A stretch of 60,230 bases of DNA, the filler included, from Dugesia japonica (lineage: Eukaryota): the NCBI GenBank assembly GCA_001938525.1. It is 5 parts of 5 records of this genome, joined end to end, with 100 filler letters (N's around TTAATTAATTAA, not from the genome) between each part and the next. Parts side by side here need not be neighbours in the genome. Positions count along the whole stretch, not along the records: positions 1 to 9,509 come from MQRL01497650.1; 4 more parts are not named here. One strand, 5' to 3'. The notes beneath the pieces were generated by a model. It ran no database searches. It was not told where the DNA came from and saw only the letters and a program-made list of their open reading frames with translations. Positions within the stretch are counted from its first letter, which is position 1. Each line of letters begins with the position of its first letter. A program made the translations under genes and the position numbers. Shown here in pieces: positions 1,966 to 57,800 of the stretch.

Positions 1966-2919
1966 AGTATATAAGCAATGGTTTTCATAACATTAATTAC
2001 TTTTCAACAACAAAAATGCAAGAAAATTTACTTACTAAAGACAATGTCTCATCAATTACTATGGAACTTGCAAAAACTACAGATTTACATCATCATAAGA
2101 TGTATTTCATCAAAATCCGATTATTTATGACTTTAAAGTAATCTTATTCATTCTTTGTTTTTATAAAATTAATAATTGTTCAGAAACCAGTTATGATTAC
2201 AAAATTAAAATACAGTTTGCTTCTTTCCGATATCAACACGAAGGATAAAAGCATATTAGAAGCATTATTTGCAAGATTCGTAGAGATACAGAAATAAAGG
2301 ATTCGATTTTCATCAATTTTAATTAGTAAGACAAGAATAAATATGATGATAAATCTGAATGGATGAAGTCAATAAATACAACTGGTGTCATATGGAAGAT
2401 CAAAATGATACAAAAGAAGATCTAATAACTGTATATGTACTTAATGTAATAAATGTTTTTTTATTAACAAATTTTTTAGAATTATTTTATACTTTTTTAT
2501 ATTCAATCATGAATATTTTTTATAAGCATTTTTTTAAAGTAAAAATTTTTATTTTATTATTTTATAGTTAAATAAATTTTATATTAATAAAATTCTTTTT
2601 AAACAAATAAATGTTTTTATAAAAACCACAAAATTTTTTTTGTTATTAATTCAATTTTATAGCCCTAAAGAGAGCTGGTTTTTCGTTCACAAGTATAAAT
2701 TCTACGGTTACATGATGAAATTACACGGGAAAGAAATTTTTCCTGACACCAAGTTCGACATGATTCTTTTTATAAAACAACATTTGTGTTACCATCATCA
2801 TTTGTGGGCTTAAAGATATCTGGGTTATTTTCATTCACAATTTAAAATTTTGACTGTTTGGAATTTAAGTTGAGTATTTTTAAATTTTTTTTACATCAAA
2901 TCGATTATATCTAATGTTA

Positions 2920-3329
2920 TATTATTCATCTCCTTGAAAATTAAAATTTTTAACTCCAAGTATTCAAATTGTTCCTACTGACAACACATTTAGACATAAA
3001 AGATCGTATTTTACAAACAGTAATGCAACAAATAACTCTGGTTCGAACCAACAGTTGACTATTTTAGATTATTTATGCAAAATTATTATAATTCCCACAT
3101 TTGCGACAAGCGTTATTGATTGTAAACGAAAATTTATTATCCTAGGGGTTCAAATTTTGCAGTTCTAATGGTTTCTTGAACCCCATTATTCTACATTTTC
3201 TTGTTCTGTAGAATATAATTGTATACTTGTCACTTTTGACATTGAGTTGACATGGTTTACACATAAGAAAGCTCATTTTTATGATAATTCTTTCGACACC
3301 TCACTTTTGTGATTAATATTTGTTATCAT
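2920..3329 (-). pseudogene. TBP-like (TATA-binding protein fold) gene, degenerate, inside a Polinton-like element
   Basis: Across frameshifts and stops: MITNINHK...KPCQLNVKSDKYTIIFYRTRKCRIMG...INFRLQSITLVANVG...CWFEPELFVALLFVKYDLLCLNVLSVGTI*ILGVK. This parallels TBP TALIFSSGKMVCTG / FKIQNMVGS / YEPELFPGL / LLIFVSGKVVLTGAK. Confidence 0.7.
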
Positions 3330-3440
3330 AATTAATGAATTTCAGGAGGTCCATAGAGGATTTTCAGAATTAATTTAATGGATTCAATAAAACAAATATA
3401 AACAATGTATTAAATTATGACTAAATTAAAGAAAAACAAG

Positions 3441-4040
3441 ATGGATAAGTTACGATATTATGCAGTCTATCAGATTATTGGACCTAATGGTAGTAGGAAA
3501 AATTTTCTTGTATGTAAACTACTGAAATCGAATGTATTTAAGTCGAAATTGAACAAAATATACTGACATAGAGGAGCAGATGAAGAGAATGGGTTGACTC
3601 AATCATACTCGTAATATTAAAATGGGGACTATAAACTGATTCGATAAAAATTGAAGCAAAATATTGAAACCTGGTGATGTTATTGTTGTTGACGATCTGT
3701 ATCAAAAGGCAAATGAAGAAAAATATTTCAATAATTTATTCCCAAAGATATCAAGACATTGTAATATGAGTGTGATATTCATTATTCAAAATCCATTTCA
3801 TCAAGGTTATAGTCACAGAACACGTAATTTAAACGTACAATACTTGGTTCAATTTAAAAATTAGAGATCAAACAGTTGTTGATTTTCTAGCATGACAGGC
3901 TTATCCTAATAATAGGCATTTTCTTATTGAATTATTTCCAGGTGAAATAGAAAAACCGCATATATATCTATTTTTCGACTTTACACATCAATTTCCAGAT
4001 GAATATAGAGTGAGAACGGATTTTTTCAATCCAAACTAGG
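3441..4040 (+). pseudogene. A32/FtsK-like viral packaging ATPase (Polinton/adintovirus), degenerate
   Basis: MDKLRYYAVYQIIGPNGSRKN (eroded Walker A), VIVVDD (Walker B), LFPKISRHCNMSVIFIIQNPF..RTRNLNVQYLVQFKN, YLFFDF; frameshifts and stops. Confidence 0.85.
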
Positions 4041-4324
4041 TAATTTTATTAATGTTATAAAATGGAAAAATTTTAAAAAATTATAGTTNATCAACTAATT
4101 GATATTAAACATCGAAAAAAGTCTGTTGTGAAGAAAAAAGATGGGGAAAAGAAGAAACAATCACATATAAAACAATCGCATAATAAGCAACTTGTAAATA
4201 ATAAGAAGCAACTTGATATGTTAAAAAATCTGACAAAACAGAACGGTAAGAAACTGCGAATGAAAAATGGAAATAGATAAAAAAAATATAAACAATTCAC
4301 TGTTATGTATGTGTTATTGAGATA

Positions 4325-4640
4325 AAAATAAAATTACTACGAAGTATTCCGCTTTCTAAGCATTGATTAAATCGTCAAAATCCTTGAGAATGAAAACTTT
4401 TCAATCATTTCCACCTTATTTTATAGCTGATTTACTTGAGATTATTATTAATATTATTCGTTGTAATGTAGTATTGAACAAAACCAGAAAGAATGTCTTA
4501 AAAAAACATAAAAAACATTATTAACCCTTATAAATACAAAAAATAGGAAATTGATGAGGCGAGTAATGAATAAACATGGTGGTGGTTTTATAGCAAACAT
4601 TACTGTCGATTGCATTAGCAGTAATATTAAAAATCATTGA
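4325..4640 (+). pseudogene. Small basic Polinton core protein ending in GGGF plus hydrophobic tail (pX/pVII-like)
   Basis: EIIINIIRCNVVL..LKKHK..L..MRRVMNKHGGGFIA.LL.IAL; lies between the ATPase and PolB. Confidence 0.55.
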
Positions 4641-5721
4641 TGAATTAGATGAAGAAGACATTAAATTACAAAAATTCATTGAATCGGAAGGAAATATTCA
4701 AGTTGGTGGCGCATTAAATTCCGTTGCTGTTGATGAAGATGTTGCTATCGAAAGGGATTTTTATCGTTGTCACCAAATCATAAAACTTGATATATCAAAT
4801 TGGTACGTTAATCAAATTATACTATCAGAAAATTAATTGTTCAACCGCTTAAGATTACTATAGAGTTGAAAGAAGTAAAATTTCAATTTCGTAAAAACGT
4901 TGAATTTATAAGGGATGAGGAGTTAAAAGCTTGCAGAATTTCAAATCGAGTTATTCAACTAAGTGACAATTTTTTCGAAGAGGGAATAAAACAATTAAAC
5001 GAAAGAATTAATATAAGAAGTGAGCTCGGTTTAAACTAGATACTGAGCTATTTTGGAAGGGGATTTTAAAATCACCAAGGTTGAAAATATTGTTAAACTG
5101 TCAGGACATAGCTATATACCAACACCATGGAATCTCAAAAAGAAAAAAGCAATTGTGAACATTCAAAATATCGATAATAAATGCTTAATTTACGGCATTT
5201 TAGGTATTACTAAGCAGGATTAAATTCAATCACATAGATATTCAATCACATAAAAATATCAAAAATACATGTCTGAGTCTCGGTTTAAAGAATGAGACAT
5301 GTCAATGAGATGGGATAATATTCGAAAATGGGAAAGAAAAATCCAGGACTTTCAATCAATATTCTATCATGGAGTTCAAATGATGCGGAAGATGACAGAG
5401 AAGTTTTAAAACATCCAAATTTAGATATCATCAACAGGTCTAAGGTAATTGATGGTGAGAAATTTTATTTTTTGTTACTATAAGATGACAACAAGTAACA
5501 TTACACAGGCGTAATGAATTTAAACAGATTAATGAAAAGATTGTTAAAGGATCTGGCACAAGAATCCAATCAATATGGTGCTCCAACTGTAGAAATGGAT
5601 TCAGAAAGGAAATAGCTTTTTAAAAACATCAAATAATTTGAGAAAAAATACCAACCGGAACAACTTTATATGCTATTCTGACAGAGCAAAACTTGAAGTT
5701 TAGAGATTTCTCCAAGACTTT
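4640..5721 (+). pseudogene. Protein-primed PolB N-terminal fragment (Polinton copy A), cut by a Gypsy insertion
   Basis: GHSYIPTPWNLKKKKAIVNIQNIDNKCLIY, HYTGVMNLNRL, WCSNC..F..KH, KFRDFSKT. Ends at the LTR just before the expected ExoI DFE motif. Confidence 0.8.
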
Positions 5722-6150: not shown

Positions 6151-8625
6151 TGGTGACCAAAGCATCATTAGATTGCTAAAAAAAATCAATACACGCTGCA
6201 ATTTTCAAAATTGGCGATGATGTCGAAAGATTTATACTAAAGACAAAATATTTTGATATAGCCTATACAAAGAAAGGTCATAGGAGTTGGTTTGTAATTG
6301 CTTTCATAGCTAAAGAGTCTCGTGAAATCTATAAAAATGAAGACGAATCTTTGGGATTTGAAGAAAGATTCAGAAATACTTTTTTTAGGCCATCAACAAT
6401 GATTAAAGATTTGGAGAAAGCTCTAAATTATCGAAGGAATGGAGAGCAAATAAATATCTATAAGAAGAAGATTGAAGGATTGGTAGAAAAGTTAATGGCT
6501 CATAAATGGAGCAAAGAGAATTTAACAAAAGAGCTAATAATAAATAGTTGCAATGACAGAAAGATTAAACATAAAATCAAATCAGAAAAAATAGAAAAAG
6601 TAGAAGATGTATCTAAAGCAATAAAAGAGTGGGAAGACATACAAGACGAAGTAAAAACTGAAGAAATAAATGTAGTTCGTAACTACAGAGATGCCGTTCT
6701 CAGAAGATCAGAACAAAGAAATTTCACCACGAATTGTAATGAAGGAATGGAACAGAACAGAAACAACAAAAGACGAGAAATAACGTGTCGGACCTGTAAT
6801 AAAAAAGGTCATGTAAGCAGAAATTGTCACGAAAAGAAAAAAGTTCTATGCTTGTTGATTTGAACAACAATTAAGAAAAGAGACTGTACTAAAGTTAGTT
6901 GTTCGAGATACAACAAGAAAGGCCACCACACAGAGGACTGTTACACAAATATGAATAGACAGTTTAGTTATCAGAATAAAAGTGAACAGGCCAGAAAAGA
7001 AATCGGAAATAGTAAACAGAGATATTATTCGAACAATACGTATAATTACACAAAGAGGAATGGAAATCACGTTAATTCAATTGAAGAAAATGAAATATAT
7101 TGTTCATGTAGAGAAGAAAAGCCCACTATTGTAATGAAGGATCAAATATTTATCAAGATGAACACACAAATAGCCAAGCTCCGACCGAAGTCGAAATTGT
7201 TGGAGGGTTGAATTAAGTATCCCAAAAAATTGCAGTATTGGTAATTATAGTAAAAGTAGTATAAATAATTATATAAATAAAATAAACGAAGATAAACAAG
7301 TACATGAGTACAATGATGTAAAAGAACAGTTGACAAGTTTGTAAAGATAGAATTGATTAGAGGCCAACCAGTGATGATCAATGATAGTAATGGAGAAGAC
7401 AGTGAAATTCTGACGATAGCGAGATAAAGCGGCAAGAGATAAGTTATGGAAAGATGCAAGGAGGACTAAGTATAACAGTTGAAATACAAAGCGTGAAAGT
7501 TGATTGCTTGTTAGACACTGAAGCAAGAGTTAATGTGGTGAGTTTGAAAATGTGAAGACAATATAAGATGTGGCAATAATAGTCCGCTCTAAATCGTAGG
7601 TACGATAAAGATAGAAGTGAAGTTCGAGAATAAAAGCAAAACAGTTAAATTCATTGTGGTGAAACAGATACATCCAGATCTAATATGAGTAAAAGAATTA
7701 TAAAACTGTTTGGATTCCAACTTCAGACAAAGATTAAATGAGAAGGTAATGAAATGTATCTGGGTAATATAGAAGCAAAATATAGACGCAATACAACGGA
7801 TGAAAACAGAGTACAGAGAGTAAAAAAATATTAATTAACAAGCTAAGTGAGAATTTAGAAAAATTTATAATGATTCATAAAAGGAGTATTCATGGCAGAC
7901 AACTGGGATATTGGCAGAACAATAATTACCGAAAATCAAATAACCACAAATGGAGAACTAATAAATACAAACCATGGAGACAACATATGCATTTAGAGAA
8001 TAAGATAGATGAAGCTATCAAGAATTTGCTTGACAATTGCATTATTGTAATTGTAAATGCATTATTGAAAATGTAATTCTCAATGGAACATTACGTTAAT
8101 TTGTATTTGGAAAAAGAAAGGAAAGACGTTAGATTATGTCTAGATTTTAGAAAACTGAATGCAATCACAGAAAGACAGGCCTTTCCGATGCCCAATGTAG
8201 ATGAAATACTAGACAATTTGAGTGTTGCAACATGTTTTAGTACTATTGATTTGGGTAATACATTCCATCAAGTTCCGTTACATAAAGATTCACAAGAGAA
8301 AACAGCATTTTCTACGAAAAATGGCCATTATTGTTTCACAAGAATGACTTTTGGTTTTGCTGCATCACCTGGAACGTTTCAAGAATTAATGGCAAAAGTA
8401 TTAGGAAACTGTGAGGAGCAATTGTATACATGGATGATATATTGATATTTTTTATGAAAACTTGGAGCACCACTATAGAAGTTTAGACCAATTTTTTGAA
8501 CAAATTAAAGAATCAGGATTGAGAATTATTCTGGGAATATGTCATTTATTGCAAGCAGAAGTCAAATTTTTAGGACATTTCATAGACAAGAATGGAGTTT
8601 GAACTGACCCAGCTAAAATTCACGA
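6151..8625 (+). mobile_element. Ty3/Gypsy internal region (gag-protease-RT), degenerate and 3'-truncated
   Basis: Zinc knuckle CRTCNKKGHVSRNC; protease-like CLLDTEARVNVV; RT motifs LCLDFRKLN, FSTIDL..FHQVPL, KTAFST, VYMDDILIF, VKFLGH. Confidence 0.92.
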
Positions 8626-11603: not shown

Positions 11604-13945
11604 ATGAATAATGATAAAGAGAACATCCTGGTTTAAAATTTTCAAGTGAAAAAGGCTTGCGACTGCATAAAAACTCCACCACATGTGGAGCTCTAGGAGC
11701 TTCAGGTGGTGGAAGTAGTAGAGGTTCTGCATGGATTAGTGTGATTCCATAATATTGTATTATCTGCGATCATGAATTCACAAGAAAAAATCATGCTCAG
11801 TCACATTTCAACAGTGATTTACACAGAGCGTGTAAAAAAATTGAATGAAGAAAAAGTTAAAGAATTATTTGATGAACTACCTGGTGATGAAGCAATTGAT
11901 TTTGAAAATAATGAAATATTATAANNNNNNNNNTTTTAAAGAAAGTAAAATTGAATTAACAAGAAATGTAAAAACATTAAATTGTAAATTAATAACCAGG
12001 TTTAAAAAAGAAATTACTAAAATTGTTGATAAATATTTGGATTATTCAAAAAAGTTGATATTACGATTGAGCGTCAATTGTAATTATAATAAAGAAGATG
12101 AAGAATATTTAATTCATATTCTAGTAATGAAAGAATAAAAATCAAAAGCGATGTTGAAATTATTGTGCAAGAGTTATTAAATCAACTTCAAAGATATATG
12201 ACAGATGAAGATCAAAGTGAAAGTGGATGGAATTCGGATTGTATTGATGATTTTAAAATTGAACTATCTAAATATCAATCATTAGTTGGCTCAAGTTATA
12301 AAAAATTACCTTTTATTAAACCAGATGTAATTAATATTAAAAATAAAGATAATTATTGTTTTCTATATTCGATTTTAGCTCATAAACATTTATTTGAAGA
12401 TCAACCAACTAGAGTTTCAAAATATATTCCTTATTTATCTGAATTAAAAATAAACGAAATGAATTATCCAGCAAGTATTGATGATGTAAAATTGTTTGAA
12501 AAATTAAATAATTTTAAAGTAAATGTTTTTGAAGTAACTGAAAAAGCTAAAATCTATCCAGTTTATATTTCTCATTATGATATTAACCCATCATCAGACA
12601 CAAAAAAATGTAATTTATTATTTTACAAAGGTTGTTGGTTTTTGCAAGTACTAATAATCATAAAAATCATTTGTGGTTATGTTGTATGAATTCATAAAGA
12701 AGTAAAACTTTATTAAATAATCATCAAAAAGAATGTATAAATCATGATTCTTCAAATGTTTATTTTGAAACTGATAAATATTATTCATTTAAAAATCATC
12801 ATTTCGGAAATGAATTACCATTTGTAATTTATGCTGATTTTGAAAGTTATACTAATACCATTATACCAATAAAAAAAACCATTATCTCTTGGAATTTATA
12901 TCAAAAGTAAATATCCTGAATTAATTCAAAATGAATATAAAGAATTTTATGGAGAAAATGTTCATGAACAGTTCATTTAAATTCTTAGAAGAAATAAATA
13001 ATAAATTAATTAAATATTTCAATAAAAAAGTTCAAACAAATAACTTTCGAGAATATCCGAAATGTAGATATTGTANTAAAAATATAACTGAAAACTTGGT
13101 AATCGATCATGATCCCTTTAATGGAGAATTCAGAGGTTATGCTCATTCAAAATGTAATTTCCAAGATAAATCTTTAAAAAATTTATTTATTCCTTTATAT
13201 TTTTACAATGAATCTGGTTATGATAATCATTTGTTTTTCAAGGAATTATTAACAAAATATCCAAAAGAAGTTAAAAGAATAATTCTTCATACTGATGAAA
13301 TTTATATTTGCTTTGTATTCCGAAAGATTAGATTTTTAGATTCATCGAGAATGTGTTCATTTACATCGATTGATACAATGGGTAAATTATTAAATTAATC
13401 TGGAAAATATAATAATTTAAAATCATTTAATCTTGCTACAAAGAAAATATCATTTCCATATGAATATGTTAAAGGAGAAAATATTAATCAAGTTATTGAA
13501 TTATTAAAATCAAATAATATTCCGTCAAAAGAAGATTTCAATAATAAACTAAAACAAAAGAAAATAACTGATCAAGAATACAATGAATTTTTACAAGACT
13601 TTAGTAACTTTAATAATCTTTGGGATTACATGATGCACTACATGAAAGTAGATGCAATTATTTTAGCTGATTTCTTTGAAAATTTCAGAGATTTGTTAAG
13701 ATAATTATCAAATTGATCCAAGTTATTGTTATTCAGCTTCAGGATTAACTTGGGCTGTAGGAACAAAATTCACACAAGTTAAATTAAAATATGCTCAAGA
13801 AGAAAGTTATGATACTTTCCTAAAGATTGAAAGAGGAGTTAGGGGTGGTTATTCTGGTGTTTGCGGAGAAAGACAGGTTTTTAATCATAACAATAATAAA
13901 AACAGTAATTACAAAAAAATAAATCAAGCTGAAAAAGAATAAATC
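11604..13945 (+). pseudogene. ZnF-pPolB, copy B, truncated before polymerase motif A
   Basis: CIICDHEFTRKNHAQSH; ESGW; YQSLVGSSYKKLP; NKDNYCF; FVIYADFE; EndoVII-like CRYC..VIDHDPFNGEFRGYAHSKCN; YNESGYD; RFLDS; FPYEY; YMKVD; GVRGG. Co-linear with the copy at 31577. Confidence 0.9.
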
Positions 13946-14992
13946 TTTTATAAATCTTTTTAAAATGGTTAATTTTATCATCAATAAAAATCTATAATAA
14001 AATCTACCAGTCTTAAATCTGATAATTTTTCTTTTAAATCTTCTATAGTGTTTTTTTGATCTTTATAAATATATTCGTTTAAATCAGGATATTTTTTACC
14101 TTCTCGTTTTTCCACAACTAAATCATTCTCTTCAAACTCAGACATTTTATTAAAAGTTAATATGAAATAATAATATTATAAATATAAATATTTGCTGGAA
14201 AAATCAAAGTAATTCTTTCTATCCTTCGATGGGATCCTCCAGGATTAATATTAATAGTAAGACGAAATAACTCTTTTTTAGTAAATATAAATTGATGTTC
14301 TTCTGGGGCATTATTAATCATTAAATAAATTGGAAAAAGATGTAAATCAGTATATCCATTAAATAATAAATGTATTTGTTCTAATGGTTTTTTTAAATAA
14401 AAAAAAAGTTCTAATAATATTTATATGATTTTCCTAAAGTAGTAAAATATTTAAATATTCCTTTTCTTTTTATTTTAAATGGAGTTAATCCAGAATGACA
14501 TGGTAATGTGAAGCCGTTGGGATCATTCTTTCTAAAAAAGTGGTTAATCTAAAAAGTGTTTTGGAGTTATTAGTAAAATTTATTTTATTGGAGTAAGGAA
14601 AATAAATATCAATTATTTCTCTAATCTTGTTTAACAGGTTTTGTCTATAAAGTTTATTTTGTGTTTAATTTTGTTTTATTTTCATAATATAATCATTAAT
14701 TTCATTAACACGATCAATATGAAGATCTTGTTTTATTTTATTAAATTCTTCTTCTAAAGGAATTAAAGGATTATTTAACAATTCTATTTGTTTCAAGAGC
14801 TTCGCGATTTCTCTCGATAATATTTCACTTTCTAAATTAATCTTATTAAATTTTTCAGGTGAACAAGTACTTGATAAATTATTAATTTCTTTTGTTAGTT
14901 TTACGATTTCTTTTTCTATTTTTATCACTATTCACACTATTCAGAGGTCATTAAAGTAGTTGATATAGATCCTTATTAATCAATTTGATGTA

Positions 14993-23042: not shown

Positions 23043-23773
23043 TTAACTCAAATTATTTTCGAAATATTCCAAGTCACCAAGAAAACCAAACTCTTCTTCC
23101 TTAATAGCAGGAACAATCGAAGTATCAAAATCTAGAAAATAATCATCTTTTATGGCTTCCGCAGCACTAATTCTTTTAGACGGATTATAAATAAACATTT
23201 TCTACATATAAATTGATGGAAATTTGAATTAATGGAAAAAGAATACCATGATTAGATTGAAACAGTTAGAATCCACTGTAGATTGTAATATCTTTATGAC
23301 ATTTTTAGTATCATTTTCAACTACCAAGCTTTCAAAATTAAATCTATCCAATAACCCAGGGAAATCACTTTTCTTGGGAACACCTAGTTGTGTGAAAAGA
23401 CTATAAAGGACATCCATATCAGATGTTCCTCTAAATGGAACTTTTTTCAAAAACATTTCTACAAATATACATCCTAATGACCAAATATCAATACTTGTAC
23501 CATAATTGTTTGAATTAAGTATTAATTCAGGACTGCGATAAAATAAAGTGACAACCTATACAAAGGAAATCAATGAAAATATGAAAATGATCAATTTACC
23601 AAAGGTGTTAAAGGTCTATTGATAACATCAATTTTACGAGCTAAACCAAAATCTGTAAGTTTTACGACTTTCTCATTATGAGAAACAAGAACATTTTGTG
23701 ATTTGATATCTCGATGAAGTACTCTACGATTGTGACAAAATAAAATTCCTTGAAGAAGCTGATACATGAAACT
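23043..23773 (-). CDS. Cyclin-dependent kinase (CDK1/2-like, divergent), last three exons
   Basis: Exons 23773-23600, 23555-23247 and 23201-23043 (44- and 45-bp GT-AG introns, phase 0) give [37 protein letters not shown]|[19 protein letters not shown]..|[13 protein letters not shown]. Confidence 0.92.
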
Positions 23774-27814: not shown

Positions 27815-28450
27815 TGAAGTTCATTACTATAAAATCTACCTAGAATTTTTTATTGTCTAAATCAGTAATTTCATAAGTAAAAGGTTTTGTATTATAAACT
27901 CGAGTAACGCAAAATATTTGTCCATTGGGCTGTAAAAACCTTTTTCAAATTTATATTCATAACTAAAGATTCTAACTCTATCTCCAATTTTAAAATTTTT
28001 ATTTTCTTTAATAAAATGGGCCCCTCCGGGATCATTTTTGTGGTGATGATCTTCAATTATTTCTTTTATTTTATCTGGATTTTCACTAGCTTCATTTATA
28101 GTTGTTTTAATATAACTATAAATTATGTTACTGTAATCATTTACAATTTTTTTGTAATAAATTATTATCCCATTTTTGGTAGCCAATTGAAATAAAGTGT
28201 TTCCACATTTTATTTTTTAGAGTTCCTATAAATCTTTCAGCAAAAACGGATTTACCTTCGTTTTCTGTATGTTATAAATTAATATTATTTTCTTTAAGGA
28301 ATTTATCAAAATATTTTGATCTAATAGCGGATTCTTTATCAAATCAGATATAATCAGGAATTCTTTTATTTTCTTCAAATATATTTTTATAAGCTTCTTT
28401 AAATGATTCTTGATTTTTATTTTTCATTGGATTTGGATATATTTTTCTTT
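27815..28450 (-). pseudogene. Polinton-type rve integrase (C-terminal part), degenerate
   Basis: PMKNKN..PDYI*FDKES..FLKENNI..HTENEGKSVFAERFIGTLK..IVNDY..FKIGDRVRI..FEKGF..TYEITDL..ELQK. Confidence 0.85.
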
Positions 28451-28454
28451 CCAC

Positions 28455-29175
28455 ACATACCACCCTCCCCCACCCGAAATTTTTTTAACACTTATACTAC
28501 TCTCATATATTAAAAAATCAAATTCAAACACAACCAATCCGAAATTAAGTCACAATTGACATACAAAATATTCACCATCACATTACCTCTTCAAAAACAC
28601 TTAAAACAACAAATTCCATTAACCCCATACAAACCTACAACCTCCCAAAAAACAGCCCACGACAACTCATACGACTGTGACTGTGTGCTACCACATTTCT
28701 AGGACAAACCATCAATCCAATCTCATAAGTCCTTTAGACAATATTTAGACCGAAAATTTGTTCAACAACAAACAAATCTTAAAAACCCCGAAAAAATTAT
28801 TTCCAAGATCTCCAGCTCCTCTTTTTTGTTTGTTTTCTTCTTACACACACACAAAATCAACTTGACCTACTTTTTAAAAACAACCTTAACAACCCAAACC
28901 CACAAAAATTAAAATTAAAAAATACACACACTACCAGGATAAAAAACTGATCCGATCAAAAAAAATTGATCCGATCACAGATTTTTTGATCCCAAAAATC
29001 TTAGAAAAAAACCCCATCACCAAAACTATCACAAAAAATTGGTCACAATAGTTAGGAGTTGTTGACCCCACCCCCTGCCGGTTAGGGGGAGGGTGCGCAA
29101 TAACTGCTTTAAAAAAATTGTGACCGATTTTTGTCCCCATTTTAACTTGTGACCATGTGCTACTATCTACCTACT
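28455..29175 (-). mobile_element. Polinton-type TIR/terminal region
   Basis: Ends GTGCTACTATCTACCTACT (the same AGTAGGTAGATAG terminus as 27090), with nearby G/C-runs; integrase lies downstream on the same strand. Confidence 0.7.
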
Positions 29176-29259
29176 CATGTGCATTTCATCATGAAAATAC
29201 ACAGTTTATCTCAGAATGTACATGTTTTTCACAGATTATATTTAAGAATATATACAAGT

Positions 29260-31200
29260 CAGCATAGAAATTAAGAGTTTTACTATTGAAAATAAGATTT
29301 TAGCATAGAAAATATTGGTTTTAAAGTGAAGATTTATAGTTTAATGATGACAAATATAGATTTTATTATAATAAGCATTAAATTTCAATAGCATATATAC
29401 TTATTTTATACAATTCTAGAAAAATCTAAATTTTTACTAGAGTAATATATTAATTTCATACAAGGATAACCAGATTTTTGATACATATAAACATTATTCA
29501 TTTGATTTATTCAATAATTACATGATATAGAACCATAACACTCATTATAATAGATACATTCAATAAACAATTTGTTGAAAAATTGTGACCCCGTCAATAG
29601 GATTTCATTCATGAAAACTCAACCTCAACTTACTAATTCTACTTTTTCTCACAAATAGTGTTAATCATCTATTAATCATTCGCATAATCTACTATAATAC
29701 TTATATAATACACTTATATAACCATTAGGATCATGTGGATATATTAGATTTAATAAAAACCTTTCACTAATAATTAAATCTAAAGTCTGTAAGGGGCATA
29801 CTTTGATTAAAAAATTTAAGTTATTCATCGTAACCTAGTTAAAATATTTAACACAAGACAAAAATAATAATACATCGTGTAAAATTCTTTATTCATATAT
29901 TAAAATTGAAACCTATCACACAAAATTTAACCTATCAAACAAAAAATTATAAACCAATATACAAAACCTAACTAAACACATAAAAATTTAAAGCTGCATA
30001 CAAAAGAATATGATCCAATACATAGAAATTATAATACATTACATTAAAATTGAAAACCAATGTACAAAAAAGTAACATATCACAAAATCCAAAGCCAACA
30101 TATAATACCCAAAATGAAAAATAATAAACTCATGACTTGTAATTGGAAATCAATTCATTAAAATTCTTAACCGATACACTAAATTTCTTAACCAATCATA
30201 TGAATATTTATCTCATCATATGTAAATTATAATCCATCCCACTAAAGTCTTAACCATGACACAAAAATTAAAACATGTAAAACTAACTGAATCACTCGAA
30301 ATTGAATCAACACTTAAAAGTAAATAATATACTGATAAAGTAATACATTTCACTATAACCACTAAACATTTGACACTTAAATCTATAACATAACTAAATT
30401 TCTTACTCTTGACAATAAAAATCTACTGATTGAAACAAAGAATTTGACGAATATAAATTAAATCAAGCTTATATAAAAGTAATTAATTTTAATCTTTATT
30501 AATTTAATGAATATATCAATCTAACTAAACTAGTAAATAATCCATAAAAATAGATTTTTAATCCATCTTATGTATTTTATTCATAAATCAATCATCTCTT
30601 TAATTTGTTACAATCTATTGAATGTAATTTAATCCATCATTTATGTATCTAAATATTCTCATAATTTACTCTAGCTTTTACAAATCAATTGAATAAAAAT
30701 TTAACTGAATATATAACATGTGCAAATCTTAACTTAAAATAAAGCTTAAAACAGAATTAATTAAAAATTAATTAATTTAATCCATCACATGCAAATTAAA
30801 ATCAATCATTCTAAGATTTTAAACCAAAACACCAAAGGTCTACGTCAACACACTAAAATTATAATTAAACATACAAAATTGTAACACATTAAATTAAAAT
30901 TATAATTTTTCATACGGAAAATAATCAAAATCAATACATAAAAAGTAATTGAGTTATCTAAATTTAATACTATAATTTAAACATTATCAATGTAAAAATC
31001 TAAACCACTAGATACACACTTTTAGACAACACAATAAAAATTGGAATCAAAAACATAAAATTTATAATTCATCAAACAAATATCTAAACCAATATATTAA
31101 AATTTGAAACCAATGCACTACAAGTTCTAGGATAGCACTATTAAAATTGAAACACACTACTACAAAAATTATAAACAATCATACAAAAATCTTAACTATT
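29260..31200. repeat. Degenerate ~21-23-bp minisatellite region
   Basis: Recurrent AGAAAATATTGGTTT-like units (29260-29460) and AAAATT..AAACCAAT-like units (29900-31200). Similar units at 40800-40990 and 41490-41650. Confidence 0.5.
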
Positions 31201-31576
31201 ATATAAGTAGATATGAAAGTACGAGTGGCCTTCATGAGGGTACCCTTACCTTTTTTTCGGGATTATATTTTAAAATGTCAAATGTCGCATCCAATGTAAA
31301 ATGTCAAATGTCAAATGTCACATCCAATGTAAAATGTTAAATGTTACAATGACACTTAATGTTACATTTTCAGTCAATTTTTTACTCCTTAAAAAAAGTC
31401 CATTTTGGGCTCAAAATTTGAACCCGAAAATGTTTTAACCTTAAAATTCTCACAGTTAAATGAGGCTTAAAGTTTTGATATTTAAAATGAAGCAATTGAA
31501 TTTATAAATAAAAAATTATTTTAAAAAATGATTACCTCCTTTTTTAGTAGGTAGGATTAAATTATTTATTTATGAA

Positions 31577-34500
31577 ATGAGTGGGATAATATGGAAATGT
31601 ATTAATTTTAATAAAACATTTAAAAACAAAGCGGGTTTATCAGGTCATGTAAAATCTCAATTTTGTATTACACCAGCAGTAAAAATTAAATGTCCAAAAG
31701 TTGAGTGTAATAAATGGTTTAAAACAGAAAATGCTGTAAGGGGACATTTAAATTTTACAGATTGTGGAAATCAAAATAATGTACATTTAACTTGTGAAAT
31801 TTGTAATAAAACATTTAAAAGACAAAATCATGCAAAAGCACATTACAATTCTAAAACTCATAAAGAAACATTAGCCTAAACATTATTTGATGAATTACCG
31901 CAAGAAGAAGCAATTGAGTATGAAGCTGAAATTCATGATATTTTAAGAATGTATAAAAATTATGAAATAACATATTTTAAGGAAAGCAAAGTGGAAATGT
32001 TAAAAAAAGTTGAAGAAATAATTGAAGCAGAAATTCAAGATATTAATGTATTTAAAAATGAAGTTGAAGAAATTATTAAGAAATATTTTAAATATGGAAA
32101 AAAAATTATTGTTAGTATGTCAAAAAAATGCAAATATATAAAAACAACAAATAATCAATTTGATGAAAAAGAATTTGAATCGTATTCAAATAATAAAAAA
32201 TTTATAATTGAAACGGAAATATCAAATGGTGTAAATGAAATTTTTACTCAATTAGAAAATTATATTGAAGATGCAGATAGAGAAGGATCTGGATGGACAT
32301 TAGAAAATATTGTAGAATATAAACTTGAATTAAGTAAATACCAATCATTAGTTGGAGCCACATATTGTAAATTACCATTCTCAAAACCAGGAGTAATTAA
32401 TATAAAATATGAAGATGAGAAATGTTTTCTTTATTGTGTTTTAGCTCATAGAAATCTAGTTGAAAATCCAACACGTGTAAATAATTACATTCCTTATTTA
32501 GATGAATTAAGTTATTATGGATTAGATTACCCACTAAATATTTGTGATGTAAAAAATTTTGAGAAAATGAATAATTGGAAGTAAATGTTTTTGGAGTAAA
32601 TTCTACAAAAAAACTTGAACCATTACACATTTCACATCACAAATCAAAACCATCACCAGAAGAAAATAAATGTAACTTATTAATTTATAAAAATCATTAT
32701 AGTTTATCTAGAGATTTAAATTTATTTTTTACATCAAATAATAATAAAAATCATTTATGTGTTAGATGGATGTATTGCTATCATAGTGAAGCTTTATTAA
32801 ATAAACATCAAGAACTTTGTATTAAACACAAACCAAATAATATTCGTTTCCCAAAAGAAGAATATTATAAATTTAGAAAACATTATCAAAAAAATAAAAT
32901 TCCATTTTTCATTTGTGGAGATTTTGAAGCATGGACAGACACCAACACTAATAAACAAAAATCTGCAGCATTAGGTATTTATCTTAAATCTGATTATCCA
33001 CATTTAATGGAAAGTAATTATTATGAATATTCATGTGAAAATGTTCACAAGAATTTGTTTGAGTTTTTAGAGAATATTGAAAATAAAATAATAGATATTA
33101 AGAAAACTAAATTAAAAAAATATTACACAGGAACAAATCATCATCAATTCAATCTAGATATGAAATGTAGATATTGTGATGAAAAAAATAAAAATCCAGT
33201 TATTAACCATAATCATTTCAATGGCTAATTCCGTGGATGGTCATGTAGACAATGTAATTTAAATGATAAATCTTGTGGAGAAAATTTATTTATACCATTT
33301 TATTTTCACAATTTATCAGGATACGACGCTCACTTATTTTTTCGAGAATTATTAATAAAATTTCCAGGAAAAGTAGAAAAAATAATTCCCCATAGTAGTG
33401 AGAATTACATCTCATTTCATTTTGGAAATTTAGATTCCTAGATTCCAATCGATTAATTCCATTTACACCAGTAGAAAAAATGGGGTAATTATTAAGACAA
33501 TCAAATAACTACCCAATATTAAGATCATTTAATTTACATCCTAAAAAAGCTATATTTCCATATGAATATTTAAAAGGGAGAAATATTAATGAAGTGGAAG
33601 AATTACTAAAAAGTAGTAAAATTCCACTCAGAAGATATTTTTTTAATAAATTAAAACAAAAAAGATTAACAGTTGAGGATTATAAATTATTTTTAAAAGA
33701 TTATTTTAAACTCAAAAATATGTAGGAATATATGCATCACTACATGAAATTAGATGTTTTAATTCTCGCAGATTATATACAATATTTTAGAAATAAATGT
33801 ATGAGTGGAATTTTTAAAATAGATCCTTGTTACTCATATTCAAAGCCAGGATATTCTTGGGAAACAGGAACTTATTATTCCCAAGTAAAATTAAAATATG
33901 CAAAACCTGAAACCTATGATATTTTCCTAACAACTGAAGAAGGAGTTAGAGGAAGAGTAGCAACAGAATTAAGTGAGAGACAAGTATTTAGTTTTAATAA
34001 ATCACGAGATCCAAATAGAAGATTAAATAAAGCACAAAAAGAAGACTTGTTAAAAATAATTAATACAGGCGACATTAATCTTCTTGAAGAATATCTTGAA
34101 GATTTAACACAAGACAGATTTATAAAATATATAGATGAAAACAGTTTATACGCAAGTTGTATGACAAAACCACTTCCAACAGGTGAGATGTATCCAGATG
34201 AAAACCTAATATATGAAAAAGCAACAGATGAAATGAATTACATTTATGTTGTAGATTTAGAGTATCCACCTAAAATACATGAGAAAACAAAATATTTTCC
34301 CCTAGCGCCAGAAAGAATAAATATCACACAAGACATGTTAGCCAACTATCAAAAAAGTTTCAATCGGAAATTATCTAAAGAAAATATTAAACTTACATTA
34401 AACCAATTTGATAAGAAAAATTATGTTACACTTGGATCAACATTAGATTTGTATCTCCAACTAGAAATAAAAATAACAAAAATGCACAAGAAATATAAAA

Positions 34501-35387
34501 TAGAAACCAGTACATGGTTTAGAGATTATGTACATAAATTTATAGATTTAAGAAGACAAGCCAAAACAAATAATGATGCTTCTGGGGATTATATTTATAA
34601 ATTAATGTTAAATGCTTTCTATGGAAAAACTTTAGAAAACATTAGGAATCGTTGTGATGTGGAAATAGTTGAAAATGATAGAGATTATCAAAAATTCACA
34701 TCAAAATTAAATGTTAAATCTAGTAAAATTTTTACATGAAATGATGAGAATGAAGCACAACTAGATGCGATGCACATGTTAAAAGGGAATTTATATTATA
34801 ACAAATTTCCTTATATAGGATTTGTAATTTTAGAACACGCAAAACTTGTATTATATGATTTTGTATACAATCAATTAGACCCATTAGTTGGTCAGGGAAA
34901 TTATAAATTATTGTATACAGACACAGATTCTATGTTTTTAGAAGTAAAAACTAGAGAAAATTTAATAAAATTACATACTTTATTAGGTAACCAATTATTT
35001 AAAATGAAGGATGAATTACCTAATGTTGAAATAATTCAAGGAGATTTTATAAGACCTAAAAATTATGGGTATAATTATATTGAAAATGATGAATGTAAAT
35101 TTGCTTCAAAAAATAAAGGTGTTCAAAGTTCTAATAAATATTCTATGAATGATTTTGACTTGGTTTTAAAATATTCAAACAAAACATTTTAAGCAACAAA
35201 TTATTCATTAAAATCTAATTTCCATGAAATAGAATTAACTAAACAGAAGAAGATTGGGTTAAATGCTTATAGTGATAAATTAATACTAGAAGATAATGGA
35301 ACACGTAGATGGCCACATGGAAATAAATATCAATGTGAAAAATGTGGACATTGGCATATAATATTAGATTTAATAAATAAAAATTAA
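31577..35387 (+). pseudogene. Full-length C2H2-ZnF / protein-primed family B DNA polymerase with EndoVII insert; several stops and a frameshift
   Basis: Three N-terminal zinc fingers; EGSGW; DEKCF..NHY; CGDFE; CRYC..HNHFNG*FRGWSCRQCN; HNLSGYD; RFLDS; YMKLD; YIDENSLYA; KLMLNAFYGK; YTDTDS; PKNY. Stops at about 31877, 33226, 33486, 33723, 34737 and 35190. Confidence 0.95.
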
Positions 35388-35389
35388 AC

Positions 35390-35906
35390 ATGTTGTCAAT
35401 AATTTTTATTAAGAAAGTGTCAAATCCAACAAGTGGAATAAATCCAACGGAAGAAGAATTAGAGAAAATAATAAATTCAAAGAAATGTAAATCAGTAAAG
35501 ATTGATGGTAAAATATATTATCAGTAAAAAAGTAAAAGATGAACTTAAGAAACAAAAACATGAAGGCGGATTTGCATTTTTAGCTGTAATACAAGCAATT
35601 ATTGGTGCTTTAGCAGGAACAGCTGGAATTGCAAGTACCGTAACAAATTCAAGACAAGCGATAAAAGCACAAAAAGAAATAGAACAATTAAGTAGTGGAT
35701 CTGGTATTTATTTAACACCTTATCAAGGTTCAGCTATACATAAATATTTAAAAAATATAATTGGAGATCCAAATTTTAAAGATTTAACAAAAAAGTTTAA
35801 AGATGATATACAACTAATTCAACAAGGTGATGGTTTATATTTACAACCTTATAAAGTAGAAGGAACTGGATTATATATAAATCCATACATAAAAAATAAT
35901 CTATAA
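35390..35906 (+). CDS. Adenovirus pX-like virion core protein (frameshift near 5' end)
   Basis: KHEGGFAFLAVIQAIIGALAGTAGIAS resembles adenoviral pX (RGGILPLLIPLIAAAIGAVPGIAS). Three GxG(I/L)Y(L/I)xPY repeats follow. Confidence 0.7.
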
Positions 35907-35956
35907 TAATCCTTAATAAAAAGAATACAAAACAAGTTGAAAATAGAATTAAAAAA

Positions 35957-36511
35957 TTGAAAGCATTAATTAAAGGTCAAGAAAAATATAATGATTTTTT
36001 CTGTGAAAATTTTATTGATTCAAGAAACTTACAAAGTGAATTATCTATTTTACAAAAACCAACAATTACCGCAATAGAAAAAATTTCAACAAAACCAAAA
36101 TTATTTGAAACAAGAGATATAACAAAATTCTTTTTAAATGAAAAAATAATTCCATTTATTCCCGAATATTCAATTGAAAACATTGATGCTAATGGAAAGT
36201 TAACTCAAACAATTATTCCTAAATTCTCTAGATTAAATGTTGTTTGTATTGATAGTGAAAAAGGTTTTATGGAAATAACTTTAAAAGAAAATAAAATTTA
36301 TTTATTTGTAGAAGAAGGAAATAAAAATTTCTTATTTAAATCTGAAGTTATACCATACACCGATGGAATATTTAGATTAATTTTAGGAAATATAGATGGA
36401 ACAGAAACACCTGAAGATGTTGAGATTTATTTAAATAAATTTATTACTCCTGCACCAACTAATAGTGATTATTGTTCTAATTTAAAAAAGAAATTAAAAA
36501 GTAAGTGTTAA
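35957..36511 (+). CDS. Hypothetical Polinton protein
   Basis: 184-aa intronless ORF packed between element genes. Confidence 0.55.
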   Translation: MKALIKGQEKYNDFFCENFIDSRNLQSELSILQKPTITAIEKISTKPKLFETRDITKFFLNEKIIPFIPEYSIENIDANGKLTQTIIPKFSRLNVVCIDSEKGFMEITLKENKIYLFVEEGNKNFLFKSEVIPYTDGIFRLILGNIDGTETPEDVEIYLNKFITPAPTNSDYCSNLKKKLKSKC

Positions 36512-37576: not shown

Positions 37577-38472
37577 CTACTTAAATCGAGAAATTAATTT
37601 CGTTAAATTTTTTTGCTTTATTTTTAATACAGTATAATTTAATAAAATTGATCATTTACTAACCTTCGTTCTATAATTACAAAACCAAGTCTGAACAACT
37701 TTAACTGGTAAATTTAGTTCATCAGCAATATATGCACGTTGCTAAAAAAGAAATCAAATAATTTTTTGCAACTACTTAAATTATAATTTACTTTAATAGA
37801 TGGATTTTGATATTTTAAATAAAAATTTTCTAAATATTGTCTTTGATCAGAAGAGATTTTTGTTTTCCGCCGAACTCCATTGTGCTCTGGGGGGTTATCT
37901 GATTTATGAGACTGTGGTTTAGAGATTTGAGTTACAGCAGAACTGCTTATGCGACCATTTTCGTAGTCTTGTTTACATATTAAAAATCCATTGTTAATTA
38001 CAAATTTATCGCCTTTGGAAATAAGATTTTTACAATAATTACATTTGAAACATGATAAATGATATGGTTGGTTTAGGCTATACATTGCAACTTCATGAGT
38101 TTGCATTGGTAGTTTGCAACCGAAACATTTTGTTACATATGAACTTCTAATATGATTGATAGTATATAATATTACAATTAAAACTAACTTATTATAACAA
38201 TTTCTACATAGCAAAGTATTTTTAACTAAAAAACATGTTTCATCTAACTGAATTTGACAATTATCACACTTGACACAAGACTTGTGCCAGTAACTATCAC
38301 CAATGACAAATAGGTGTTTTTCTTTAATGAGATCATTACACATTGCACAATTTATAATTGCCATTTTAATTTTCTTTTTAGTTTTTTTTGTAGAATGAGG
38401 CTCTTCTGTGGGTGTTTTAAATGCCTCTGAATTATCATTCAACCAATTACTACTTTGATCACTAAAATCCAT
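37577..38472 (-). CDS. LIM-homeodomain transcription factor, Lmx-like
   Basis: Two LIM domains plus homeodomain. Exons 38472-38189, 38146-37792, 37741-37664 and probably 37615-37577 (introns 42, 50 and 48 bp). Homeodomain RRKTKISSDQRQYLENFYLKYQNPSIK|QRAYIADELNLPVKVVQTWFCNYRTK|. Both homeodomain intron positions and KGDKFVINNGFLICKQDYE match Lmx1 as recalled. Confidence 0.88.
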
Positions 38473-39904
38473 TCCTGTGCAAAAATGAAGAAAATAATTA
38501 TGACATAAATAATTTGCGATTATAACAATGCATTTATTTTTAAAAATATTTTTAAAAAAAATTAGTTATAGCAAATTTATAAAAATTATACTTTTAGACT
38601 GTAAAATATCACCAGTAGCCATTGTCTACAATATTAAAGGCTATTATCGGCTTGAGATATATTTAAACAAATTCAAGTTTTGTTTATTTTTTAAAATTTA
38701 TTACTAATGTTAGAATTCAAAAGATTTTTATAAGAGTTGATATATAAATAACTTTTAACTTATTAATATATTTGAAAAAAGTTTTATTTTTGCTATAAAA
38801 ATAACAATAAAATATTTTCCTTAATAATTACGAATTAAAATAATTAAAAATTGGTAAGTATTTCTTTTATAGTAAAATATTAATATTTTAAAGTATAATT
38901 TTTTAGCATAATTTGTTGATAATTGGAATTTCTTACTAGTTACATCCACTAACTTTATCATATTAACTATTAATGAATTAAAATAAAAGATTGATTAGCA
39001 CTTATAAAAAATACTTAATATAACTTTTTAAAAGCAATATTGAATTGATTTTAGATAACAAATAAAGAAGCGACGTTCAAGTTATGGGAAAGGTTAAAAC
39101 TAGTTGATAATATATTCCATTAAAATTTTTCGAGAATAATACACGGAATGGTCAAGTAAGAAAAATTGACTAATTGCAAATAAAATAAATTTACGTTTAT
39201 GTTGTGGTACTCGCTATCTATATTACAATTATTTTTTTTAATCACATGCAATTATCGATTCAAAACTACAATCAACCTTGAGTAACTCAAAATTCTAGAG
39301 AATCAAAATTTTATCTATTGAACTGTAGTCGTAGATCAAACTTTATTATGCCGTATAATTTATTCAATCTATATCTTATGATCGAATCTGATTCAAAATA
39401 CGTGTTTATTAAATTTTATTTATTGAGAGCGGTTGTAATCTTAACTTTGTTTTGCATGTGAAAGAGTATCGTTTAAAAAAAGAAAGTGACCATTGACTCA
39501 ATGTAAAATGTTGTTATAGAGGTTGGTCATAAATAAAAATATACAAAACTTAATCATATATATTTTTAGTATTTTTTGATCCTCGTGGTATAGCAATTTA
39601 ACAAAAAAATTTTGACTTCAAATATTTTAATTTATTAGGCGTGTAAGTAAAATCTCCTTATTTATTCTAAATATTAATATAATAAAAAAAGAAAATACAT
39701 CAATTAAAATAACAGTTATTTGAATAAACTTTTATTTAATAATCACAAAACTTTACATTATAATGCTTAACTTCAAAATTAAACTAAAAATAAATGTATT
39801 GAATTTTAGTGAAAACCTTTCGACCAACTTGCTTCTACATAATTTAAGGAAGAACTCAGTAATATTTACTGACCTAATAAATTATTCTTACGGTGACACT
39901 AAAA

Positions 39905-42022: not shown

Positions 42023-42839
42023 GTCGATAAAAATTCTATGAAATTTCACAGTAGTCGATAAATAAAACCGATTAGGTTTGCCCATATTTGACCTCATCGA
42101 TAAAACCTTACCCAAATTTTACCTAAATCACCCAAAAATTACCAATCCCGAGGAAAACTTTGACCAATTCACCCAAAAATTACCCAAACCAACTAATCCC
42201 GAGGAAAAATTCACCTGAACTAACCAAAAATTGACCTTATTCGACCTCACCAAGAAAACTTTCAACCACTTTCACCTAAATCACCCAGAAATTACCAATC
42301 CTGAGGAAATATTTGACCAAAACGCCTAAAAATTACCCAAACCAACCAATCCCGAGGAAATTATTGACTAAATTCACCTGAACCAGCCAAAAATCAACAT
42401 TATTCGACCTTACCGAATAAATTCCCAACTAAATACACAGGGAAATACAAAAACATTTACTGCTTAAAAACCTAAAAAATTTTCCTATTTAAATACATTG
42501 AAAAAATGAAAAACAGTTACCGCCTAAAAAGCTTAAAAATTTTCCAAACTAAATACACAGGGAAATTTAAAAAACAGTTAATCCTATTACGTAAAGTTTC
42601 ACCGATGAAATTAATCTGATGACATAATTTGTGTGCCAAATCTTTTCCCAGCTAAATACACAGGGAAATTTAAAAAACAGTAACGTAATAATGTCGCGAC
42701 GAAATTAATTACATTATGCAATGCACACAAATGTGTGCCGCCGACTATTTACATTAGAAAAATACAAAAACACTTATGTAATAATCCGATTACGTCGGGG
42801 TGGGGGGTTACCAAATGTGTGCTGTTCTTTCACACTACT
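42023..42839 (-). mobile_element. Polinton-type TIR with subterminal repeats
   Basis: Minus strand starts AGTAGT..GGTAACCCCCCACCCC. Internal repeats ACCAATCCCGAGGAAA and AAATACACAGGGAAAT. Abuts the truncated Gypsy integrase. Confidence 0.6.
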
Positions 42840-56069: not shown

Positions 56070-57425
56070 ATTCAATTTCTAGGAGTAGAAACCATAAATA
56101 AATAGTACATAAGATGCACACCTAACCAGTGATGACTAAAGATAGAACACAGACGATGGGGCCAAAACCAACAAAAGCGATGAAATATTTAGCAAGTTGT
56201 TATTTTAATTATATGGGATTTTCCAGATTTTAGGGATAAGAAACTACAGAAGGAATAAATTATTGCAGTGAAATACATAAGGGTAAACGGTATTAATACC
56301 CGTTAAAAGACTAATGTCTAATTTGCAGCAAGTCTGGCTATTCTTTTAAATCTTGTGCAAAGTGATAGCGTTGATCTGGCCGCAGTAACACTAAACTTCT
56401 GTATATTCAGGAATAATTAAATGATGCAAATTAAAAGACAACAGCGTAACAGATTATGATGTAGTAATGATAAAAAACCGGAACGACTCCATTGCTTTTA
56501 TTTCATAGATGGAGTAAATATAAAACAAGGTTAAATAAATTAAAGTGGTGATGAAAGAAGAGAATTGTTTGAAAGAAAAGATGCAGAAGAGTGGAGAAAA
56601 GTATACTTTAATCGAGTAAAGTAAAAAATGTTGCGAGATTAAGGAACTTTTGTGATATACGAGTGAAAATTATTAGAATAGAATTGAAAAACTGTTGTTC
56701 TCAGCGCGCAATATCAGATAAAATGAAATATTTAATAATAGCGTAGAAAACCCTAAAAATAGTATTTCAATATTCCATGGAAGATCAGATGTACATTTTA
56801 GATTTTTGGTACTAGTTTTGTGATAATTTCAATGCAAAGAAGAAAAGAAAATTGTATTGGCAAATGAATCCAGATATTTGACAGCTCATGATAAAATGTA
56901 TTGGAAATTGAATTCCAGTAAAAACAGATCACAAAGCTTGGGTATTTTTGAACTATACAAAGAAACTGATTAATCCACAAATCCAGATGTGTATGGTAAA
57001 TTTAAGAGTTTATGATTTTTATCTCAAGTATAGAAAATGCAAAGAACCCACCAATGCGGATGAGTTGCCGAGGTTTAAGAAGAGTTTATGTTTACAATGC
57101 AGTATGAAACACGTGTACGCAAAAGAAGCAAAAACAAGATTATAGAATATCAATGGAATATAACATAAGACCGATAAATTTGCAATGATTGGACACGGCT
57201 CAAAAAAGGATTAAGAAATACAACACTGTGTAGCAATTTTGAGAGAGCAAGGTTAAGAGATTAAAAATAGTGAACATGGAAAGTACTGAAATAAACTGAA
57301 AATTAAATTTAAGATAGTGGATTATTTATTAGTAGTGGAAAGAAGAAATAAATTATTGTTAGTGGTTCCGACAAGCATACTTGATAAAGTGAAAAAGGAA
57401 ATTCATGAAGATTTATTTCATTTAA
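56070..57425 (+). mobile_element. Highly degenerate Gypsy pol fragment
   Basis: FLGV.., YMGFSRF, YRKCKEPTNADELPR..CLQC, LLVVP..EIHEDLFH. Confidence 0.6.
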
Positions 57426-57429
57426 AGAA

Positions 57430-57800
57430 GAATAACAACGTCAAAGGGTATATTCCAATATGATTATGCGAACAGTCTTTTCAAGGTTTACTTAATACAA
57501 CAGAAATGCCACCAAAATGGAATGAAATAACGGATGAAGATTATGAGAAGGCGTTGGAAATGTAGAGAACTACTGATCGCAAGATGCTTCTGGATTATAT
57601 GATGATTTATTTAAAGCTGGACATATTTTTATTGGCAGATTTCTTCCAACAGTTCAGAATCAAATCAATTTCACACAACAAATTGAAGCCATTGAATTTC
57701 TTTGGCTTACGAGCCAAGAGTTGGGCATTAGTCTTGATGTCACTAAATTAACAGGTAGAACAGTTGATGGACAACGATATATTCTTCTTTGTTGAAGGTG
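57430..57800 (+). pseudogene. pPolB exonuclease-III fragment (different subfamily)
   Basis: KGIFQYDY..ITDEDYEKA..LDYMMIYLKLDIFLLADFFQQFR..SW..DIFFFVEG. Confidence 0.8.

Follow-up and report, generated by a model that had tools for sequence, protein, structure and literature searches.

The window, by which we mean the whole 60,230-nucleotide stretch of Dugesia japonica DNA analysed here, contains a decayed TBP-like gene on its minus strand. It lies head-to-head with a decayed packaging ATPase gene, which is followed by a pX-like ORF and a fragment of a pPolB gene (Table 1).

Table 1. Features of the TBP–ATPase region, with positions counted along the window
Feature	Position	Strand	Remarks
Decayed mini-TBP gene	2880..3329	-	Two frameshifts, three premature stops
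TBP–ATPase spacer	3330..3440	.	Sequence; 111 bp between starts
TATAAACA box, putative late core promoter	3397..3404	+	44 nt before ATG 3441, facing the ATPase
Decayed A32-type packaging ATPase	3441..4039	+	Frameshifts, stops, degenerate Walker A
Decayed pX-like ORF	4285..4600	+	Homologous to the ORF downstream of ATPase in L005 and L023
Second TATAAACA box, putative late core promoter	4287..4294	+	Upstream of the pX-like ORF
pPolB N-terminal fragment	4866..5716	+	Several frameshifts; protein-primed DNA polymerase homology

Alignment with intact relatives places the homologous start of the TBP-like gene at ATG 3329 and its last in-frame stop at 2882–2880. Frameshifts near 3290 and near 3150 split the gene over frames, the homologous frame is interrupted by premature stops at 3071, 2966, and 2924, and two of the three phenylalanine sites conserved in the family carry substitutions. 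Judged by its sequence, the gene is real but this copy is a pseudogene. The TBP motifs quoted in an earlier, sequence-only reading of this DNA are present on the minus strand, and its description of both TBP repeats holds loosely: the second repeat is complete in the model of a relative, but the first is much shortened.

A read-through of the window gene (P0003, 111 residues with X at its two breaks) was searched against proteins of 61–195 aa, and matches ten of ten candidates with E values of 3e-28 to 5e-13, all of them PF00352 proteins. The best intact relative is 55% identical (E 3e-28); these ten closest relatives are 144–170 aa long, and an unrestricted profile search returns proteins mostly of 100–230 aa. 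The proposed Pfam check fails with the broken window pieces alone, which have no match at E 0.05 and find their nearest solved TBP only at E 0.053, but succeeds with all ten intact relatives (48–63 bits against a gathering threshold of 22.9). The family profile run against the six frames of the window identifies a single TBP locus (iE 1e-18).

The neighbouring genes are in a similar state. With the ATPase ATG at 3441 (an alternative is at 3417), the distance between the two starts agrees with the approximately 110 bp noted before. The middle piece of the ATPase has a weak match to Pox_A32 (E 0.006, below the cut-off) and shares 67% identity with an intact ATPase at locus L005, and the ORF 3' of that ATPase matches the next window ORF with E 1e-14. 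The latter has no Pfam match, and we take it to be pX. The pPolB fragment is 35–37% identical to residues 12–294 of L007:9125-12391 (E 2e-31), an ORF that has no PF03175 match itself and is assigned as pPolB because it matches the other polymerase copies in the window, which do match PF03175. The succession of a pX-like ORF and pPolB downstream of the ATPase is as the sequence-only reading had it, on the plus strand and with every member broken. These two Polinton hallmarks, an A32-type ATPase and pPolB, are intact in L026, L037, and other loci. Homology and family profile searches of the window revealed neither an integrase nor a capsid gene next to the TBP fragment, and of the window's 94 inverted repeats the 25 longest include no TIR pair flanking it; TIRs were also not found in eight long relative loci, all of which may be incomplete.

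Several other features of the window were recorded. A broken lysine-rich small ORF lies between the ATPase and the pX-like ORF (4062–4280), and decayed LTR-retroelement remnants with a zinc knuckle and RVT_1 directly follow the pPolB fragment (6180–8445), with another such set near 42774–45272. Three further Polinton remnants with pPolB are present at 11800–14100, 27900–36500, and 57400–59850, none with a TBP-like gene, and there is an integrase-like piece at 27935–28448. Host-type genes, all on the minus strand, include FYVE/PH (129–761), LIM domain (37714–38565), and protein kinase (23229–23555) genes.

Thousands of diverged host contigs align to 2968–3435, mostly with less than 95% identity to the TBP gene, spacer, and ATPase. 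Their summed depth of 22,000–51,000, compared with 14–28 on 2617–2850 (three runs; this is not a copy number), suggests a very abundant family. Raw RNA reads on the stretch number 62, 590, and 110 in three runs, with none at least 99% alike; they come from other copies, are few and have no readable strand, and so say nothing about timing or about the window copy.

A family of TBP genes in Polintons

When 1.84 billion representatives were searched with the profile, 38 matched at E ≤1e-30 and 377 at 1e-10, with cellular TBPs among the weaker ones, and a metagenome scan yielded at least 78 loci whose TBP-like genes belong to several types. Among the matches listed, at least one Polinton core gene is present in 45 of the 78 loci, and in 29 of the 30 TBP loci of at least 4 kb. 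The core genes with Pfam support in these relatives are pPolB, A32, rve-chromo, C5 protease, and PLA2; capsid-like calls rest on size, position, and recall, without a Pfam match. A Polinton or adintovirus lineage with its own TBP-fold gene, as the sequence-only reading had envisaged, is thus borne out by intact relatives whose contigs also carry pPolB, ATPase, rve, protease, and capsid-like genes.

The intact family genes are, as judged from pairwise sequence comparison, under purifying selection: dN/dS is 0.10–0.35 in 13 of 14 estimable family pairs and 1.00 in one near-identical pair, with four of the 18 pairs saturated. A 27-row tree (LG+G4 without mixture; host TBP, TRF2, and giant-virus TBPs left out) places the window copy inside a nine-row clade of compact proteins with support of 98/98, and the AU test rejects grouping the window copy with the two cellular eukaryotic TBPs (p-AU 2.9e-5). 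The phylogenetic check that had been called for is answered to this extent, with the window copy nesting among Polinton TBPs and not with the two cellular ones. We conclude that the Polinton mini-TBP gene is real, widespread, and barely described, and that the window copy is a dead member that serves as a pointer to the family.

Four of six loci longer than 9 kb that were selected by their ATPase carry a TBP gene (L079, L082, L085, and L091, with three different types), and TBP may therefore be common in that Polinton group; these four contigs come from records of bacterial MAGs, where they are probably contaminants from binning. Locus L060 (2065–3582) has two tandem TBP-like genes, one of them near-canonical (144 bits), after capsid-like and protease-like genes. 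A 116-aa gene adjoins TBP in 12 loci and has eight homologues; it has no Pfam match, no atlas match of at least 0.9, and no convincing remnant in the window. IMG/VR gave no match in scans with the TBP and ATPase alignments or with a single capsid-like protein and a single pPolB piece.

Fold and DNA face of the family TBP

An AlphaFold model of the intact relative P0004 (pLDDT 97.2, pTM 0.86) has the TBP saddle, with two repeats and a continuous beta sheet, as the proposed structural check anticipated, and with a shortened first repeat. Its top Foldseek matches in the PDB are all TBPs (TM 0.66–0.74 over the whole chain, ~20% identity), and the 35 PDB sequences matched by the family profile are all TBPs or TBP fusions. 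In the model the second repeat is complete, and the first has a six-residue helix and lacks the long second helix; segment 126–157 (yeast numbering) has a median length of 19 aa in the ten closest relatives versus 33. By both model and alignment, the family is without the first stirrup and most first-repeat helices. The helix lost from the first repeat is the one that binds TFIIA, Mot1, and NC2.

Residues were counted in 142 partly redundant rows (search matches of up to 230 aa, together with locus ORFs of 140–200 aa scoring above 28 bits), with yeast numbering carried over through a colinear cellular TBP. As described in the text of PMC10005294 (Arabidopsis numbers plus 42), C-terminal stirrup glutamates bind TFIIB and four phenylalanines intercalate. 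Three of these phenylalanines are kept in the family (F116 in 141, F190 in 140, and F207 in 140 of the 142 rows), but the column of the fourth, F99, is a gap in all 142, a result that depends on the alignment; the suggested check of the intercalating residues thus finds three of the four conserved. The stirrup glutamates are also kept, E186 in 132 and E188 in 138 rows.

The positions that we take to face the DNA behave differently. V122 is replaced by R in 139 of 142 rows, T124 by M in 140, L205 by N in 139, N159 by S or T in 140, and I194 by R in 105. Among the canonical TATA contacts, which are presumably N69/N159, V71/V161, V122/V213, T124/T215, and L205, only N69 and V213 are mostly kept; N159, V71, V161, V122, T124, and L205 are replaced, and T215 is kept in 28 of 142 rows. 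Compared with a canonical TBP, the family thus has the stirrup glutamates and departs from it in the four phenylalanines and the TATA-contact residues. A DNA face that is changed and yet so strongly conserved suggests a new DNA specificity, not a loss of binding. The first repeat faces positions 7/8 of the DNA site, and the arginine at the V122 site may read a C:G pair at position 7.

The YATAAAC box and the role of the TBP

We counted k-mers without bias in 100-bp upstream regions, after de-duplication (loci L001–L049 among the matches listed), and found ATAAAC in 94 of 201 regions, compared with 12.1 in shuffles (z 23; the shuffle maxima of z in comparable sets are about 5–6), and ATAAACG 18 times versus 1.7. 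The preceding base is T or C at 92 of 107 sites, so the box, YATAAAC(A/G) and here called YATAAAC, is not AATAAA. It is strand-specific, occurring in 79 of 209 upstream regions in the sense orientation versus five antisense, and its position peaks at 30–49 nt before the ATG (40 of 79). In the window, the ATPase (3397) and the pX-like ORF (4287) are each preceded by the box in the form TATAAACA, against a background of 118 of 4650 random 100-mers, or 2.5% per 100 bp. The cellular TATA consensus is given as YWTAWADN, with the second phenylalanine pair inserting at step 7/8 (PMC1935006); C at position 7 puts YATAAAC outside this consensus.

The box is found before the genes for ATPase (14/19), capsid-like protein (5/6), pX (7/9), PLA2 (8/10), and rve (6/10), and before 36/101 other ORFs, with counts of 1/3 for pPolB and 0/1 for protease; five of the 19 ATPases have no box within 100 bp. 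Only one of 40 TBP genes is preceded by it, and 11 of 40 have a canonical TATA. Pooled, the box lies upstream of 91 of 225 ORFs in family loci versus 3 of 200 in other Polinton loci, a difference whose Fisher p overstates the case because the loci are not independent. At least two boxes are present in 15 of 20 family loci with at least five ORFs, compared with 0 of 20 other loci; four of these 20 family loci (L009, L019, L041, and L045) have none. Some boxes lie inside the coding end of the upstream gene, and codon constraint may therefore add to the counts. In YATAAAC elements, several ATPases have Y-K-Q or H-K-R as their last residues, and these codons spell the box of the next gene.

As an independent check, we used fifteen loci selected by ATPase alone. 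The one with a family TBP (L079) has the box before seven of 11 ORFs, and those with other TBPs have it before 0 of 13 (L082), 1 of 16 (L085), and 0 of 12 ORFs (L091). In the eleven loci where no TBP is visible, which are mostly short or partial, there is never more than one box per locus (L092, 0 of 14 ORFs). Trees of the ATPase and the capsid give no support either for uniting the YATAAAC elements or for separating them, so that TBP clade and element lineage are confounded as correlates of the box.

Other TBP types accompany other motifs. Loci with two-repeat TBPs have GTAAGAA in 14 of 56 regions versus 1.0 in shuffles (YATAAAC in 1 of 56), and a third group of loci has ATGCAAA in 9 of 52 versus 0.8 (YATAAAC in 0 of 52); k-mer counts gave no clear motif for the group with TBP and TFIIB or for L082, L084, and L092. 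TATTTAA was considered as the box of the TBP and TFIIB group and rejected, its z of 5.5 falling below the shuffle maximum of 6.1. A gene for the coactivator PC4 (PF02229, mostly with two repeats) lies upstream of the two-repeat TBP in L056, L058, L061, L062, and L064, and tblastn finds the same pair in L075–L077; these are Polinton-type contigs, and the PC4 and TBP elements have upstream boxes of the TAAGAA type. In L085 (10445–11547) and L091 (4714–5828) TBP is followed by a TFIIB-like gene with a zinc ribbon and one TFIIB repeat, and in both TBP is head-to-head with a capsid-like gene. No TFIIB-like gene was found in the loci of the window copy's own TBP family. The pairing of TBP with PC4 or TFIIB in related Polintons supports a role in transcription.

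We propose, with a probability of roughly 0.65, that the family TBP of intact elements is a virus-specific late-promoter factor that reads YATAAAC. The TBP gene would be transcribed early, by host machinery and from a host-type promoter; its product would bind YATAAAC as a TATA box with C at position 7, and the kept stirrup would recruit host TFIIB and Pol II. Bound TBP would then turn on the packaging, capsid, and other virion genes, 'early' and 'late' both being assigned from gene class. Loss of the first-repeat helix may free the protein from host regulators that use this helix. The fold, residues, linkage, and distribution of the motif are observed, and from them we infer binding, timing, and recruitment.

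The sequence-only reading had left a choice between a basal factor and a decoy, and it is the basal factor that the DNA-face residues, the position of the box, the clade-specific motifs, and the TFIIB neighbour favour. A decoy would sequester host TFIIB or block host promoters, with host TBP or a forkhead protein reading YATAAAC, and we regard this as unlikely. The TFIIB stirrup is the best-kept surface and the first repeat is reduced in the model, both as a decoy might have them, and ATAAACA is also a forkhead consensus; PDB entry 1qn3 is a crystal structure of wild-type TBP on a C(-25) variant of the TATA box. However, a decoy has no need of near-invariant new DNA-face residues together with three kept phenylalanines, and the box is strand-specific, is placed like a core promoter, includes ATAAACG, and differs between TBP clades.

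Still less likely is another role on DNA, at the element ends or on single-stranded DNA during replication or packaging, in which case the box would mark lineage only. The confounding of lineage with TBP clade is compatible with this, and there are precedents in the divergent Giardia TBP, described as preferring single-stranded DNA (PMC12209930), and in KSHV ORF24, described as acting also at the lytic origin (PMC6541308). However, the Giardia protein is without three of the four phenylalanines (PMC12209930) and the family TBP without one, and the neighbouring PC4 or TFIIB genes of related Polinton TBPs point to transcription.

The sequence-only reading had also proposed that TBP and ATPase are driven from a shared bidirectional promoter. 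The divergent spacer is real, diverged host contigs cover it to the same depth as the TBP gene, and a single contig, 82% alike, reaches from the 5' end of TBP across most of the spacer; this coverage makes the divergent layout probably common to other copies in this host. However, among the 29 loci with TBP and ATPase in the matches listed, TBP is upstream on the same strand in 20, downstream in two, convergent in seven, and head-to-head in none, and four further loci add no head-to-head case (0 of 33 in total). TBP is instead divergent from the 116-aa gene in L001, L005, and L006 and from the capsid-like gene in L085 and L091, and the box in the window spacer faces the ATPase alone. Co-regulation from one conserved bidirectional promoter is thus unsupported and decidedly improbable. 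A processed host TBP or TRF2 pseudogene lying beside a Polinton by chance would suit an intronless, broken copy in an animal-type genome and trees that leave the host proteins out, but it is very unlikely given the compact clade and the rejected grouping with two cellular TBPs, the 56% identity to an intact compact member set against the marginal match to any solved TBP, and the Polinton linkage of the relatives, and for a canonical TBP it is refuted.

If the family TBP is indeed a late-promoter factor, its DNA-face changes, going with the C at position 7 of the box, would be an example of how the specificity of a TBP is rewired, and the combination of a mini-TBP and a matching box bears on how Polintons switch on their capsid genes, with or without a helper virus. 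A broader proposal, which we put forward tentatively and at a little under even odds, is that many Polintons of animals use host Pol II for a late-gene programme of their own, driven by captured basal factors (TBP alone, TBP and PC4, or TBP and TFIIB), each TBP clade having co-evolved with a private core promoter (YATAAAC, TAAGAA, or WWGCAAA). An L070-type TBP would then prefer CGTAAGAA, YATAAAC being the box of the family TBP. Such elements would provide a natural series of orthogonal TBP–promoter pairs and a sign of virion-gene expression without a helper virus.

Comparison with known systems

Cellular TBPs (PF00352; PDB 1ytb and 1cdw) have the same saddle, complete second repeat, F116/F190/F207, and E186/E188 as the family TBP. 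The family protein is smaller, ~150 aa versus ~180, has lost the first stirrup, F99, and most first-repeat helices, has its DNA-face residues replaced, and is only ~20% identical in structural comparison. TRF2 is described as having lost phenylalanine residues and as not binding TATA (PMC10005294, PMC4422821), and is set against the family TBP here by description, not by sequence.

In our literature searches, which covered mostly titles and abstract openings together with the open text of selected papers, one Polinton-linked TBP appeared: the MELD virus/adintovirus map of Starrett et al. 2021 (PMC8502044; preprint 10.1101/697771) shows a TBP-like gene together with an adintovirus-like PolB. 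'TBP' is a figure-legend label there, for a gene that may belong to the same family; 'promoter' occurs 0 times in the main text (PMC8502044), and the text covered contains no family, residue, or promoter analysis.

A viral TBP fold is also present in nucleocytoviruses, for example Heterosigma akashiwo virus 01 and Megavirus, and the best BFVD match of the family TBP is a nucleocytovirus TBP (E 2e-8, 18% identity). Those proteins are described as being expressed together with RNA polymerase genes that the virus itself encodes (PMC11464507), whereas no RNA polymerase subunit was seen in the scanned Polinton ORFs.

The closest functional parallel would be with the beta- and gammaherpesvirus proteins KSHV ORF24, EBV BcRF1, and HCMV UL87, which likewise combine a virus-encoded TBP fold with a variant box, although the activity of the family TBP is predicted. 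KSHV ORF24 is described as a viral TBP fold that works with TATT late promoters, in which structural genes have a variant TATA box (PMC6541308), and BcRF1 has a weak fold match to the P0004 model (E 0.007). The herpesvirus mimics are large and bind Pol II directly in a six-protein complex that reads TATTWAA, whereas the family TBP stands alone as a minimal core, with the TFIIB stirrup retained, and is accompanied by YATAAAC; a large protein, a Pol II-binding domain, and five partner genes, which characterise the herpesvirus vPIC, are not features of the family. By analogy, therefore, the family TBP would at most work like the herpesvirus TBP mimics and is not a member of that system. If its proposed role is correct, it would be a further viral late-gene TBP beside those of the herpesviruses and giant viruses, in minimal form.
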